Shown here one piece after another: positions 9,762 to 59,496 of a DNA stretch of 63,299 bases. Origin of the DNA: a virus. Taxonomy: Duplodnaviria; Caudoviricetes. The stretch lies in the IMG/VR virus record IMGVR_UViG_3300009678_000063, positions 1 to 63,299 of that record; one strand, given 5' to 3'. The position numbers and the translations under genes were made by a program. Below the pieces are notes generated by a model. The model was given only the letters and a program-made list of their open reading frames with translations. It ran no database searches and had not been told where the DNA came from. How positions within the stretch are numbered: the first letter of the stretch is position 1; every line of letters begins with the position of its first letter.

Positions 9762-10676
9762 GTTCAAACAAGGTCTACGCCATCATCACTGAGCGCATCG
9801 TGGCCATGCTCGACGCGGGCACCGTGCCGTGGCGCAAGGGGTGGGCCGGTGGCGACCGCTTCCCGGTCAGCATCCACGGCCGCACCTACCGGGGCATCAA
9901 CATTGTGGTTGCTGGCCGCGGTGGCCGCATCCACGGGCTACCGGTCCCACGTCTGGCTCACCTACAAGCAGGCCGTGGCCCTAGGTGGGGTGGTCCGCAA
10001 GGGTGAGAAGGGCACGCCGGTCGTGTTCTGGAAGCAACTACAGGTCGAGGACCGGGACGAGGCGGGCCAGAAGAAGACCATCCCGTTCCTGCGGTACTTC
10101 ACCGTCTTCAACACGGAGCAGACTGAGGGCTGCACCTTCGACGCGGCGACCATCAAGCGCCTCGCCCCGCCGGACGTGCCGACCGGGTTCGACCCGGTAG
10201 TCGAGGCGGAGACCGTCTTCGAGGGCATGCCGTCCCGCCCGTCCGTCACCTTCGACGGTGGCAACCGGGCGTTCTACCGGCCGGACAGCGACACCGTGCA
10301 CCTGCCGCCCCGTGAGACCTTCCACGATGCGGCTGGATTCTACGAGACCCTGTTCCACGAACTCGGCCACGCCACCGGGCACGCGTCCCGGGTGGGGCGC
10401 AAGGTCGAGGGCAACCCCTTCGGCAGCCACGACTACGGCCGTGAGGAACTCGTGGCCGAAATGACCTCAGCGTTCGTGCTCGCCACTGTCGGGCTAGAGC
10501 AGGAGACCCTCGTCAACGCGGCCGCCTACATCGCCTCGTGGAAGCGGGCCATTGCGGCCGACGAGTCCATGGTGGTGTGGGCTGCCAGCCAAGCGCAGAA
10601 GGCGGCCGACTTCATCCTTGGAGTGGCGCTTGACACCCGTGAGACACTGGTAGCAGACCAGAAGGAGACCAGATGA
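9758..10676 (+). pseudogene. ardC: ArdC-family antirestriction/ssDNA-binding protein, frameshifted near 9900
   Basis: VY..IT.RIV..L..GTVPWRKGW...YRGIN in one frame; WLTYKQA..LGG.VRKGEKG, VFN.EQ, HELGHATGH, EELVAE in the next frame. Confidence 0.85.
10630..10648 (+). promoter_or_regulatory. Short-spacer promoter-like element
   Basis: TTGACA-cccgtga-GACACT followed by AGACCAGAAGGAGA leader. Confidence 0.6.
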
Positions 10677-45022: not shown

Positions 45023-45090
45023 GGTTCTCCTATCCTCTAGGGACTATACGGGGTGGCCGGACGGGACACTAGCCCGCCCGGCCGGGGACA

Positions 45091-52897: not shown

Positions 52898-53095
52898 TCA
52901 GGCCTTCTGGATGGTCTTGGGGTCATTGGGCCACTTGACGGTAGAGCCACACCTGCGGCACGGTCCCTCAACGGAGCCGACCACTAGACGGTACAGGTCA
53001 CGGTGCTTGATGGCTAGGCGCGCTGTACCGTCCGAGGAGACTTCCACGTAACCGAACAGGGACCCACACTGGCACCTAACTGGTTCCGGTTTCAT
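52898..53095 (-). CDS. Small zinc-ribbon protein
   Basis: RCQCG...CRRCG. Confidence 0.55.
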   Translation of the reverse strand: MKPEPVRCQCGSLFGYVEVSSDGTARLAIKHRDLYRLVVGSVEGPCRRCGSTVKWPNDPKTIQKA

Positions 53096-54566
53096 GGCTC
53101 CAAGGCCCTCCCAAGAATCCCATGCGCACCGGGCGCCGAGAGTCTCCGTACAGTGCTAGGACGAGACTCCAAAAGTAGTCGTCCTTGTTGCCCGCAAACT
53201 TGTAGAAGTTCGCTTCGGTCTTCGTCCGGCGTATGCCGTGAATCTGTCTCGTCAAGTCCTGATGGTTGGGCCACGTTACGAGGCCCATTTGCATGTCACC
53301 CTTGAGGGTGGTAGCCCATCGCTCCTTGCGCTGGTTAGTGAAGACAACGCCCTCGATGTTTCCGCTTATCTCGCGCTTGGCGTCCTCAACGAACTTCTGG
53401 CCGACGCCGGTCTGGTCGATGGTGACACGTGCTGGATTCGTAGCGGCGATCAAGCGACGAAGGTACTCGAACTGCTCGTTGTACGGGTCCTGCGTGGCCT
53501 TCGTGAAGAGGACACGACGAGTAGACGAATCGTCAGGACCGGGTAGGGTCTCGACCACCGTAAACACGGTCTGGTCTCGGTCACGGGCCAAGTCCACCCC
53601 GATAGACAGTGAGCCTTCGGAACGGAAGAGGCCATTCCAGTCTCGCCAAATCTTCTGGTCGTGGTCCGTGCAGGACTGGATCAGGTCCCACGTGTAGTAG
53701 GCCGACATCTCATCCTCGAACTCGCACTCGTACTCAGTGCGGAATCCGACGGTGTCGTTACCGAACTCCTCGAAGATCGAGATGAGTTTGTCCGTGCCGT
53801 ACTGGCGGACGCGTTCCTCGGTGGTGAGTCCAGAGGCAAGTGCTAGTGCGTCGGGAAGCGCACCTTCGCGGACCATCGCGGAACACTCCCACCACGGGAC
53901 AAGGTGCCGCGAGTAGTTCGCGTAGGTCTGCTCTCCGGACCAGATGTCGAAGAACATGCCGGACTGCGCTAGCGGAGTAGAGACGATAGTGATTCGTGCG
54001 CCGCCCCGGGTGATGGCGGGAAGTGCGGCCCGGTACAACTTCTTCGCATCGCGAACGTGCGCGAACTCATCGAAGTAGATGTCCTTGCGGCCACCGCGGA
54101 TGGCGGAGGAGGCCGGCTGAGAGATGATGGCGCTCGTGTCGGGGGGGCGGTGGAACGAAATCTCGTTGTCCGCGTCGGTCCAAAGGATCGGCTTGAGGAC
54201 TGGGTCGGTCTCACGGAACTCGTCGCCGATGCTGTGGTACAGCGCTCGGGCGATGTCAACCTTGTCGCCCGCCTCCTTCTGGTTGATGGAGACGATGTTA
54301 GCCCGGTAGTTCCTCTGCGTCGCCGCTCGGAAGGTCGCTTCCGCCGACAGGACCGTCGAGAACCCGATCTGCCTCGACTTGTCCACTATCCGGTACGCTG
54401 ACTTGTCGTTCAGGAACCGAATCTGGTAGGTCTCCAACTTGGTCGGCTCGCCCTCCAAGGAGGTCAGTGTCTCCAACCAGACTGCCGGGTTGGTCGCCAA
54501 CAAGTACAGCAAGTCGTCCTCGGAGGTCTCGACTTGCCCAAACTTTGAGAAGCGGTTCTGGACCAT
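53076..54566 (-). CDS. terL: Terminase large subunit
   Basis: KSRQIGFS Walker A, YFDEFAH Walker B, VSTP, IGVDLAR, DQTGVG, DDYFWS. Confidence 0.95.
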   Translation of the reverse strand: MVQNRFSKFGQVETSEDDLLYLLATNPAVWLETLTSLEGEPTKLETYQIRFLNDKSAYRIVDKSRQIGFSTVLSAEATFRAATQRNYRANIVSINQKEAGDKVDIARALYHSIGDEFRETDPVLKPILWTDADNEISFHRPPDTSAIISQPASSAIRGGRKDIYFDEFAHVRDAKKLYRAALPAITRGGARITIVSTPLAQSGMFFDIWSGEQTYANYSRHLVPWWECSAMVREGALPDALALASGLTTEERVRQYGTDKLISIFEEFGNDTVGFRTEYECEFEDEMSAYYTWDLIQSCTDHDQKIWRDWNGLFRSEGSLSIGVDLARDRDQTVFTVVETLPGPDDSSTRRVLFTKATQDPYNEQFEYLRRLIAATNPARVTIDQTGVGQKFVEDAKREISGNIEGVVFTNQRKERWATTLKGDMQMGLVTWPNHQDLTRQIHGIRRTKTEANFYKFAGNKDDYFWSLVLALYGDSRRPVRMGFLGGPWSHETGTS

Positions 54567-55029
54567 CTGCCTTATCTTCCTCCCGCTTCTCGACCTGATG
54601 TCGGAGCGCAAGTAGGGAGTTGAGGACCTTGATGCGGTCAGTTACGTCCCTGCGGAAGTAAGACTCAACGTTGATTTCGCCATCGTCGCCGACGGCCGAG
54701 GTCATCTCGCCGATCATTGCCGGCATGAGGTTGCGCGATAGAATGAGGATCAGGGCGTCCAACTCGCGCTTGGTCGAGATTGCCTTGCCGTCTCGAATGA
54801 CACCACGAAGGTACGTGAAGTGCTCCGGCGGAACGGTGCCCTCCATCTTGAGGAGCATGGCGTCGGCCAGTTCAGTGGGGACCAGCGACTTCGGCTTGTT
54901 CTTCGAGCCCGGTGGGCGACCGCCACGACGGGTGGTCAGCGACTTCTCCCCGGCCTGATGAGTAGTGCGTGAAGCGCTCTCCGACCGACCCTCGGTGTCT
55001 CTAACGGCGGCAGCGGCTCTTGGCATCAT
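54298..55029 (-). CDS. Terminase small subunit candidate
   Basis: GGRPPGSKNK motif, directly upstream of and overlapping terL. Confidence 0.55.
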   Translation of the reverse strand: MMPRAAAAVRDTEGRSESASRTTHQAGEKSLTTRRGGRPPGSKNKPKSLVPTELADAMLLKMEGTVPPEHFTYLRGVIRDGKAISTKRELDALILILSRNLMPAMIGEMTSAVGDDGEINVESYFRRDVTDRIKVLNSLLALRHQVEKREEDKADGPEPLLKVWASRDLRGRLAVLVGDQPGSLVGDTDLLGGRADQVGDLPDSVPERQVSVPDSGQVEADRVLDGPVGGSDLPSGDAEELPG

Positions 55030-55044
55030 TTCTCCGGACATAGT

Positions 55045-55436
55045 GGGACCCCCTGCACCCGCGAGGGGAGGGGGTCCGATGGAGCGGTTGATCCGCGCGC
55101 TCAGGCGGTGAACGGCTGGACTTTCGTGTACCAGCACTCGGCGTACGAAGTACGGTAACAGTCCTTGTCAGGACTCCGAGACCCACGGTTGGGTTCCACC
55201 CACAGGTTCAGGCTCGTTAGGCCCTCCGCCGCGGTCCGTACTGTCAGCCCGGTGCCGCGTCGTTTACTGCTGCCCACGGTGCGATCCCTCCCTTCGTGAG
55301 GAGGGGTTCCGCCACGCTCCACGTCCTTTCGAGGGGACGCTTATCAAATGCAGCGGGCCATTTACGGGCTACTCACCCGAAGTGAGTTCCGTGGGGTGAC
55401 CCGCCAGTCACCCGAATATATCGGACCTTTCGGCCC
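55045..55436 (-). ncRNA. Unassigned ~390-nt structured RNA
   Basis: Serial hairpins with GAAA and cUUCGg loops immediately 3' of the last tRNA. Confidence 0.55.
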
Positions 55437-55437
55437 A

Positions 55438-55513
55438 TGGCTGCGTCTCAAGGGATCGAACCTTGGAATCTGCTGGTTCAAGGCCAGCCGCCTTACCGCT
55501 TGGCTAAGACGCA
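55438..55513 (-). tRNA. tRNA-Gln(UUG), C33
   Basis: Cloverleaf, loop CC-TTG-AA, CCA. Confidence 0.85.
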
Positions 55514-55514
55514 T

Positions 55515-55589
55515 TGGCGAGTCATCTCAGGCTCGAACTGAGAACCGGAAGGGTAAGAACCTTCTGCACCACCGTTGTGCTAATGACCC
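55515..55589 (-). tRNA. tRNA-Lys(CUU)
   Basis: Cloverleaf, TT-CTT-AC, CCA. Confidence 0.85.
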
Positions 55590-55590
55590 A

Positions 55591-55665
55591 TGGCTGCGAT
55601 GGCAGGACTCGAACCTGCAACAAGACGGGTAACAACCGCCGGCTCTGCCGTTGAACTACACCGCA
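55591..55665 (-). tRNA. tRNA-Asn(GUU)
   Basis: Cloverleaf, CCA. Confidence 0.9.
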
Positions 55666-55666
55666 A

Positions 55667-55740
55667 TGGACAGCGTGACGAGACTCGAACTCGCATACGT
55701 GGGGGTAAAAGCCCCGTGGCAACCGTTTGCCCACACGCCG
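55667..55740 (-). tRNA. tRNA-Lys(UUU)
   Basis: CT-TTT-AC, CCA. Confidence 0.8.
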
Positions 55741-55741
55741 A

Positions 55742-55816
55742 TGGAAGCGGAGAAAGGAATCGAACCTTCGACTTGGCGCGTATGAAGCGCCTGTTCTGCC
55801 ACTGAACTACTCAGCC
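55742..55816 (-). tRNA. tRNA-Met(CAU), elongator (Ile2 not excluded)
   Basis: TT-CAT-AC, CCA. Confidence 0.8.
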
Positions 55817-55818
55817 AT

Positions 55819-55896
55819 TGGTAGACGTATTAGGAGTTGAACCTACTCTTGTTCGGGATATAAGCCCGACGGCCACTACCGGCGACCACTACGTCC
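55819..55896 (-). tRNA. tRNA-Ile(UAU)
   Basis: CT-TAT-AT, A73, CCA. Confidence 0.8.
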
Positions 55897-55897
55897 A

Positions 55898-55973
55898 TGG
55901 TGCTATCCAAGGGACTCGAACCCCCGACGCGCAGTGCTTCAAACTGCCGTTCTACCTACTGAACTAAGATAGC
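55898..55973 (-). tRNA. tRNA-Phe(GAA)
   Basis: Cloverleaf, CCA. Confidence 0.9.
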
Positions 55974-55974
55974 G

Positions 55975-56238
55975 TGTAAGGCGTGTAGGAGAGTTACGCC
56001 GTCGCTTCCGCTTTCCGGAACGACCCAACCTGCCGGACAGGTCCCCTCCACCATCGCTAGGGAGTCCGAGTTTCTACACCTAGCGTACAGGCTTGTAAGT
56101 ACGCGACTGCCCACACTTACCGCCACCAGCCCCGCGAAGGGCGGGTGGTCCCTCTTCCCCGCGGGACAAGCCCTCGGTTTACAGACGGTCCACCATCAAG
56201 GCCGAGCAATCTCAGCGCTGCTTGGCAGTCGCGAATCA
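55975..56238 (-). ncRNA. Unassigned structured RNA(s), two closed domains
   Basis: CGCGACTGCC/GGCAGTCGCG and GTGTAG/CTACAC closing stems between tRNAs. Confidence 0.55.
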
Positions 56239-56239
56239 T

Positions 56240-56313
56240 TGGAGCACCTGCTAGGAATCAAACCTAGACCTCCACCCTTACAAGGGGCGTGTCCTGTCTT
56301 AGACGACAGGTGC
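56240..56313 (-). tRNA. tRNA-Thr(UGU)
   Basis: Cloverleaf, CCA. Confidence 0.85.
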
Positions 56314-56314
56314 A

Positions 56315-56391
56315 TGGCGGGGACCACGAGACTCGAACTCGCTGCCTCCGGCTTGACAAGCCGGTATCAATACCACTTAGACCTCATCCCC
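56315..56391 (-). tRNA. tRNA-Asp(GUC)
   Basis: Cloverleaf, CCA. Confidence 0.88.
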
Positions 56392-56392
56392 G

Positions 56393-56471
56393 TGGTGAAT
56401 GTTGTTGGACTCGAACCAACGGCCTTCTCCTTATCAGAGAGATGCACGCATACCAACCGTGCTCAACATCC
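56393..56471 (-). tRNA. tRNA-Ile(GAU)
   Basis: Cloverleaf, CCA. Confidence 0.88.
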
Positions 56472-56980: not shown

Positions 56981-56984
56981 TTGA

Positions 56985-57317
56985 GCAGATAGGCTATAAG
57001 CCCCGTCCTGTGGACCTTGGTTCAAGCGCCTTGCGGCTCCCAACTGAACGACTGCCATCCACCTTGCTGTTCGATTGCTCGAACAATCCTTGCGTGCTTC
57101 TCCACCCCACCGAGCCTCGTCATAGGGCACTCGCACTTGCAACGCCTAGAGTTTACCCGTTTCACCCGAGCACTACCTCGGTTCGTCACTGTTGCACTAG
57201 TCCTACCCTCGCGGGCGCCGGCCGTTAGCCGGTAGGCTGGCTCTGGTTGCGGGGACTTTCCTCACTCACCGCGGGACAAGTCACCGAACGGATATGCGCG
57301 ACAGTCCACCTATCTAC
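56985..57317 (-). ncRNA. rnpB: RNase P RNA (reduced bacterial type A-like)
   Basis: GAGGAAAGTCCCC, AGTGCAACAG, GGGTGAAACGGGTAAAC, GGATGGCAGTC, ACAGGACGGGGCTTA; P1, P4, P5, P6 and P18 pair. Confidence 0.93.
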
Positions 57318-59419: not shown

Positions 59420-59496
59420 TGGGTGCGCCAGCGGGACTCGAACCACGCTTCTCCGGGTTATGAGCCCAGTGAGGAAACCTTTCCTCCCATAGCACA
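59420..59496 (-). tRNA. Initiator-type tRNA-fMet(CAU)
   Basis: GGG-CT-CAT-AA-CCC anticodon arm, CCA. Confidence 0.82.

Follow-up and report, generated by a model that had tools for sequence, protein, structure and literature searches.

The window analyzed here is the whole 63,299-bp stretch of IMG/VR record IMGVR_UViG_3300009678_000063, a viral genome estimated to be 57% complete. Its minus strand carries an array of 36 tRNA genes as called by ARAGORN (36 to 37 with an extra one found by Rfam only), followed in order by the stretch that an earlier note had flagged as a structured RNA, an ORF in the terS position, the TerL gene (53076-54611), and a portal gene. The flagged stretch extends on the minus strand from the 3′ end of tRNA-Gln(UUG) to the start of the next ORF. 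The Rfam-only tRNA (59423-59496, minus strand, 37.6 bits) is absent from the ARAGORN list, and the array may therefore comprise 37 tRNAs. A full-length bacterial class A RNase P RNA (56981-57317, minus strand, 140.5 bits with Rfam) lies within the array, flanked by tRNA-Leu(CAA) and tRNA-Gln(CUG). Among relatives, RNase P RNA was present at five of seven loci in one set, and it scored above the cut-off in two of five relatives' records, with one more at 90.5 bits. A second conserved non-tRNA element occupies the 266-nt gap between tRNA-Thr(UGU) and tRNA-Phe (55974-56239, minus strand). It is common to the window and eight relatives, contains the motifs GGAACUCGA, CUGGAAACGG, and AACUCUCCUACAC, displays visible compensatory changes (GGC/GCC versus GCC/GGU), has no match in Rfam, and is partly within an RNA-library contig spanning 56046-56343.

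On the packaging side of the flagged stretch, the terS-position ORF is conserved in relatives and was assigned to no family by Pfam or PHROGs, and the best match of TerL among cultured phages has 29% identity. For the terS-position gene, the probable start is not 55041 but the ATG ATG at 55029-55024, which follows a GGAG at 55035-55032. The hairpin-CACUAUGUCCGGAG..AUG module of the window (55024-55041, minus strand) resembles that of the related locus L053 and of other relatives. The terS-position ORF overlaps the TerL ORF in another frame by 314 nt (54298-54611, minus strand). Relatives preserve the protein sequence of its C-terminal extension (..PLLKVWASRDL..GRLAVLVG..), and they also match the TerL N terminus, from residue 2-5; the overlap is either dual-coding or the product of a mis-set TerL start.

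Reading the letters alone, the earlier note had named seven hairpins within 55045-55436, all of which were located on the minus strand at the positions given below, and had placed the start of the stretch 1 nt after a CCA. The stretch indeed adjoins the CCA encoded by tRNA-Gln(UUG) (55440-55438), the end of which is 1 nt from the flagged stretch (55437), but the GGGCC hairpin itself begins 2 nt after the CCA. The tRNA and the seven hairpins, the latter identified from sequence, are as follows.

55438-55513, minus strand: tRNA-Gln(UUG), the last tRNA of the array (ARAGORN; Rfam tRNA, 57.1 bits)
55436-55423, minus strand: hairpin GGGCC-GAAA-GGTCC
55413-55407 with 55400-55394, minus strand: hairpin GGGTGAC/GTCACCC
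~55387-55372, minus strand: hairpin CTCAC..GTGAG
55339-55335 with 55326-55322, minus strand: hairpin CGTCC/GGACG
55305-55299 with 55292-55286, minus strand: hairpin CCCTCCT/GGGAGGG
inside 55180-55137, minus strand: hairpin GTCC/GGAC
55077-55046, minus strand: hairpin GGACCCCCT/AGGGGGTCC

Relatives of the phage were collected by a TerL search, which returned 26 viral loci and 19 metagenome loci (designated L). None exceeds 67% identity, and the sub-lineage of the window is therefore without a covariation partner, save one strain that is 98.6% identical. In 8 of the 11 viral contigs that have the junction in view (L003, L004, L007, L009, L010, L011, L012, and L020), a conserved element of ~300 nt comes after the last tRNA-Gln(UUG); it is absent from L002, L008, and L013. 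Among the metagenome contigs, it is found in L050, L057, L060, and partially in L061, and it is absent from L043, L049, L052, and L053; L045 and L046 are the contigs of L010 and L012. The tRNA preceding the element is thus tRNA-Gln(UUG) in the relatives as well as in the window. The order of the relatives' element is a leader ACUAnAUAAU, a hairpin P0, a P1 junction with stems A to D, a 3′ hairpin, a GC-rich terminal hairpin, a ribosome-binding site of the UCCGGAG type, and the next ORF. The module of terminal hairpin and UCCGGAG is present in the relatives with the RNA, and the 5′ spacers that separate the tRNA from the leader range from 0 to ~270 nt with no common sequence. An extra ORF of ~150 aa (MSAGDEVIIGGVYYPNG...) separates the tRNA array from the terS-position gene in L012 (3082-3531), L013, L049, and L050; that of L012 has no family in PHROGs or Pfam.

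The leader motif is kept in eight of eight relatives. The possibility that the leader ACTATATAAT is a phage promoter was rejected because it occurs at this locus only: the records of L004 and L010 contain no further copy with up to one mismatch, and the two further copies in G004, the record of L020, are both within the tRNA locus (43564 and 45030). In G004, a complete 111-kb relative, the leader occurs three times near the locus (43564, 45030, and 45123), and the copy at 45030 precedes an apparent partial duplicate of the 5′ end of the element.

No primary-sequence similarity is detectable between the window element and the relatives' element: blastn of the window stretch against the related loci gave no match, and an nhmmer profile of the relatives matched the window with E values of 6.3 or more. 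A 521-nt stretch had no sequence match in the cultured-phage collection. A pattern search of viral contigs recovered none beyond the eight known ones. A scan of 185,579 species genomes, which used one exact pattern and says nothing on absence from cellular genomes, gave one match in a MAG contig; having neither a tRNA nor an R1 or R2 hit (see below), it was dismissed as chance.

Covariation was assessed with eight distinct relatives, the window being left out. In the 5′ domain (21 pairs), 95.2% of cells are paired and 11 pairs are changed on both sides; none of 500 shuffles reached any of five measures, and controls slid along the alignment were 34 to 60% paired. In the 3′ domain (24 pairs), 88.5% of cells are paired and 10 pairs have changes on both sides; 14 of 500 shuffles reached that number, and none of 500 reached the covariation score of 0.421; the slid controls were 33 to 49% paired. 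P0 exhibits both-sided changes at seven of nine pairs, stem A covaries, the outer helix of stem C has pairs 48-93 and 50-91 changed on both sides in four of eight sequences each, and the 3′ hairpin helix (286-302 of alignment A1) displays compensatory changes. The weakest helix is the inner helix of stem C, with 68.8% paired. P1 and stem B join the two half-models, and their support comes from the Rfam alignment and direct reading of the sequences only. P1 is GAACG/CGUUC in five relatives, GGAUG/CGUCC in L020, GAGCG/CACUC with one mismatch in L004, and GAGCG/CGUUC in L050. Stem B is CUACG/CGUAG in four, CUGCG/CGCAG in L004, CUGCG/CGUAG in L060, and CCAAG/CUUGG in L050, with one mismatch in L057. 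An RNAalifold model of the first alignment, with another stem C and another register of stem B, was rejected; the manA-type helices are those that covary in the wider set.

Two covariance models, R1 and R2, were built from the relatives only and searched against the whole window, on both strands and with filters off. The top R1 hit was 55349-55272 on the minus strand (27.3 bits, with a rough E value of 3.6e-6; runner-up 13.3 bits), and the top R2 hit was 55226-55105 on the minus strand (29.1 bits, with a rough E value of 1.5e-5; runner-up 10.9 bits). Both lie on the correct strand and are colinear with each other, and the window preserves standard pairing at 18 of the 21 R1 pairs and 21 of the 24 R2 pairs. 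Since both models rank this stretch first, the window carries a divergent member of the relatives' element. Homolog covariation had been proposed as a check on the flagged RNA, and it came out strongly: covariation is marked in the eight relatives, and models made from them find the window.

The alignments allow a layout to be proposed for the window, consisting of an 88-nt spacer with hairpins, a core (P0, then P1 around stems A to D), a small hairpin, and a GC-rich terminal hairpin. The core at 55349-55105 (minus strand, 245 nt) is a conserved structured RNA with a manA-type junction. In the fold model of the window all helices are made of standard pairs. The parts are listed below.

55350-55437, minus strand: variable 5′ spacer (fold z of −2.25), starting with GGGCC-GAAA-GGUCC at 55436-55423
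55340-55349, minus strand: leader AUUUGAUAAG, corresponding to the relatives' ACUAnAUAAU in the R1 alignment
55322-55339, minus strand: P0 hairpin CGUCC-CCUCGAAA-GGACG, aligned with the first hairpin of manA and with P0 of R1
55110-55319, minus strand: multi-helix junction closed by P1, from the manA covariance model alignment
55281-55312, minus strand: stem A, GC/GC and CCCUCCU (55305-55299) with GGGAGGG (55292-55286)
55184-55278, minus strand: stem B, CGUGG (55278-55274) with CCGUG (55188-55184), from the covariance model alignments
55137-55180, minus strand: stem C, CUCGG/CCGAG, with two inner hairpins including GUCC/GGAC
55115-55135, minus strand: stem D, GCUGG-UACACGAAAGU-CCAGC, with an 11-nt loop, the length found in canonical manA
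55093-55108, minus strand: 3′ hairpin CCGC-CUGAGCGC-GCGG, the counterpart of the relatives' CCAC-(8 nt)-GUGG
55046-55077, minus strand: GC-rich terminal hairpin, then CACUAUGUCCGGAGAAAUG (fold z of −2.65)

P1 of the window pairs GAGCG (55319-55315) with CGUUC (55114-55110). The remainder of the spacer folds as GGGUGAC/GUCACCC or, alternatively, as a longer hairpin with CUCAC-UUCGG-GUGAG inside it. Within stem B lie hairpins Y (55224-55210) and X (55202-55190) along with a variable central domain, an arrangement shared by stem B of the relatives. The window element therefore resembles the relatives' element (L003, L004, L007, L010, L020, L050, L057, and L060; not in Rfam) in its position after tRNA-Gln(UUG) and in its helices P0, P1, A, B, Y, X, C, and D, 3′ hairpin, terminal hairpin, and ribosome-binding module. 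It differs in its shorter central domain, two-hairpin interior of stem C, 88-nt 5′ spacer, and loops. The loops UUAGCG (P0), GCCA (Y), and UAGGCAAU (D) are invariant among the relatives, and the window letters differ at each. Reading of these invariant letters suggests that in the relatives the Y loop UGCC may pair with GGCA of the D loop and the P0 loop UUAG with CUAA of the junction; these candidate pairings are not kept in the window.

The folding energy of the flagged stretch gives a different picture of its parts. The whole 393 nt folds with a z of −2.29, and 1 of 100 shuffles is as good. This signal is due to the 5′ spacer (88 nt), for which 4 of 200 shuffles are as good, and the 3′ tail (63 nt), for which 3 of 200 are; the 245-nt core has a z of −0.02, with 87 of 200 dinucleotide shuffles as stable or more stable. 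The homology-derived fold, at −120.2 kcal/mol, is 14 kcal/mol above the minimum free energy fold of −134.5 kcal/mol, which swaps GGGTGAC/GTCACCC for the longer alternative hairpin. The earlier note held that folding no better than that of shuffled sequences would refute a structured RNA, and this is what was found for the core, but not for the stretch taken whole. The shuffle-level folding of the core is outweighed by the covariation and homology that support its structure; the evidence for a real structure is comparative, from covariation and covariance models, and not thermodynamic.

The only non-tRNA match in a sensitive Rfam scan of 54900-55600 was manA (RF01745). It covers 55339-55105 and model positions 1-192 of 192, with 29.6 bits and an E value of 1.1e-5 (701 nt against all families); a single-family search over the record gave an E value of 2.3e-7. 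The match is far below the Rfam gathering threshold of 55.2 bits. Of six element types compared with manA, the L004 type scored 41.2 bits, the window 29.6 bits, and the L010 type 24.4 bits, and the L003, L020, and L009 types had no manA match at E ≤ 10. The architecture of the window follows the manA order of a 5′ hairpin, a P1 junction of four stems, and conserved junction letters: as in manA, there is a GUG..GAA after P1, a GGU before stem C, a C-ACC tail, and a stem D that combines a loop of 11 nt with a GGUA...A.UCC frame. When R1 and R2 were searched against a 6-kb locus of Synechococcus phage S-CREM1, they ranked its annotated manA first, although weakly (15.4 bits, E value 0.0019, and 11.9 bits, E value 0.022). 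That manA (10215-10429, 215 nt) starts 1 nt after tRNA-Leu and abuts tRNA-Asn, and is given 100.6 bits in the published paper's table. Like it, the window element is phage-encoded and abuts a tRNA gene.

The window element is unlike manA in size, having a core of 245 nt and ~390 nt in all, as compared with 215 nt in S-CREM1 and the <200 nt given for the RNAs of a July 2026 preprint (10.64898/2026.07.01.735769). The extra length is found in the central domain of stem B, the two-hairpin stem C, the leader, the 3′ hairpin, and the 5′ spacer. The setting also differs. The phage of the window is GC-rich, uncultured, and not a T4-like cyanophage, and its element is the last in the array, before packaging genes, rather than between tRNAs as in S-CREM1. 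On the evidence of the Rfam alignment, the flagged stretch is best described as an enlarged, sub-threshold, and uncatalogued relative of manA; it is manA-like, and not a member by the Rfam criterion. The proposal of a large structured noncoding RNA beside phage tRNAs is thus borne out by covariation, covariance model hits, and adjacency to a tRNA, whereas its supposed novelty is not, manA being the only Rfam match: the RNA is a diverged and larger version of a motif already known, rather than an entirely new class.

Contigs of metatranscriptome run X3 are identical to 55121-55423 of the window (303 nt, depth 21.3), to 57000-57282, which is inside the RNase P RNA (depth 7.7), and to 56046-56343 (depth 6.5). 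These are assembled contigs, from which RNA ends, strand, and level are not readable. No X3 contigs lie over the terS and TerL genes, and contigs are uninformative on absence. Small shares in runs X4 and X5 have no bearing on habitat. In DNA run X2, a strain 98.6% identical to the window has 42 differences over 53500-56471. Among the 40 differences listed, 31 are in TerL, one is in the part that is terS only, and four are in the flagged stretch; none of those listed is in the tRNAs of 55438-55973. Two of the four, at 55078 and 55091, are in linkers. In RNA sense, the change at 55224 is G>A, converting a G-U pair that closes hairpin Y to A-U, and the change at 55405 is also G>A, converting a G-U pair of the minimum free energy alternative hairpin to A-U.

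Small stable non-tRNA RNAs within a phage tRNA operon are represented by species 1 and 2 (rnaC and rnaD) of phage T4, which are presumably freed by tRNA-processing enzymes; they are much shorter than the window RNA. We favor, at a probability of about 0.65, a stand-alone stable RNA that is made with the tRNAs and is not a switch for the terminase genes. The RNA would be the last unit of a minus-strand operon of 36 to 37 tRNAs plus RNase P RNA, and would be co-transcribed with the tRNAs. Its 5′ end may be freed by the trimming of tRNA-Gln(UUG) 1 nt upstream, and the terminal hairpin, which immediately precedes the ribosome-binding site of the first packaging gene, would define where its 3′ end lies. 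The terminal hairpin at 55046-55077 likely represents the 3′ end of the RNA operon, in front of the next gene's ribosome-binding site; a simple terminator scan did not call it, the U tract being absent.

The main alternative is that the RNA is a cis-regulatory leader, i.e., a riboswitch, an attenuator, or a processive-antitermination RNA, that gates read-through into the terS-like and terminase genes via the terminal hairpin. We regard this as unlikely, although it is the strongest of the competing explanations. manA was first put forward as a cis-regulatory element or riboswitch candidate in marine phages and γ-proteobacteria in the description by Weinberg et al. (2010, PMC2864571), and in the window the first packaging gene comes immediately after the RNA, the GC-rich hairpin lying between the two. 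That hairpin has a U tract in L020 and L057 and in L057 is only 9 nt after P1, and the promoter scan found no sigma-70-like promoter between the RNA and the packaging gene, which may thus depend on read-through. A riboswitch would be expected to have its platform only together with the aptamer and to precede a consistent downstream gene. Instead, of six relatives without the RNA (L013 being the sixth), all five inspected (L002, L008, L049, L052, and L053) keep the hairpin and UCCGGAG module right after the last tRNA, from which we infer that the module belongs to the operon boundary and not to an aptamer, and in L012 and L050 the ORF downstream of the element differs from that of the other relatives. 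In S-CREM1, manA is between two tRNAs with no ORF behind it, and the window element abuts a tRNA 3′ end. The preprint cited above reports that manA RNAs assemble in vitro, via kissing loops, into closed octamers, decamers, and a 60-mer cage, and in its account these defined multimers form without a ligand (10.64898/2026.07.01.735769). By analogy, the window element is probably a free, possibly multimeric RNA particle rather than a riboswitch.

Protein coding or DNA packaging, the first through the ORF at 55101-55322 (73 aa) and the second as a pac or cos site, is highly improbable as an explanation of the stretch. The 73-aa frame is open in the window, and the strain change at 55224 within it is synonymous by codon reading. 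Each frame of all six contains at least one stop in nine of nine core elements; the ORF is therefore not conserved as a protein, a finding that goes the way of the noncoding RNA proposed earlier. Its product has no Pfam family, and its single match, of 32 residues with an E value of 0.008 in a 2.3-kb database, is explained by nucleotide homology. Packaging sites are often near terS, but in the complete 111-kb relative, which has direct terminal repeats, the element is near 45 kb, far from the ends. The compensatory base-pair changes indicate selection on the RNA fold and argue against both a coding and a pac function. Even less credible is the suggestion of a ribozyme (a remnant of a group I intron or some other kind) or of an RNA like GOLLD, ROOL, or tmRNA, which drew on loose echoes of the P, Q, R, and S elements and on the phage-tRNA setting shared with GOLLD and ROOL, because none of these families, group I included, has a match at E ≤ 10 in 54900-55600 or at gathering level window-wide, ARAGORN finds no tmRNA, and the covariation-backed fold is a manA-type junction.

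The stand-alone RNA considered most probable has an unusual setting, in a phage RNA operon where 36 to 37 tRNAs are accompanied by an RNase P RNA of the phage's own and by one or more further conserved non-tRNA RNAs. A more speculative extension, which we consider doubtful, is that these RNAs form a distinct manA-related family of 300 to 400 nt, whose RNA-only particles are larger than manA cages or differently shaped, and whose folding or assembly state, given their place between the operon of tRNAs and RNase P RNA and the packaging genes, also gates terminase read-through. If true, the formation of RNA particles would be coupled with late gene expression.

manA has been an orphan riboswitch candidate for 16 years, and RNA-only cages were described in 2026, as the preprint reports (10.64898/2026.07.01.735769). 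The existence of a larger relative in GC-rich, uncultured phages outside the cyanophages widens the range of the manA family, and the window element favors free RNAs made with phage tRNAs over gene switches. The natural size variants may provide a test of how peripheral helices set the geometry of assembly.
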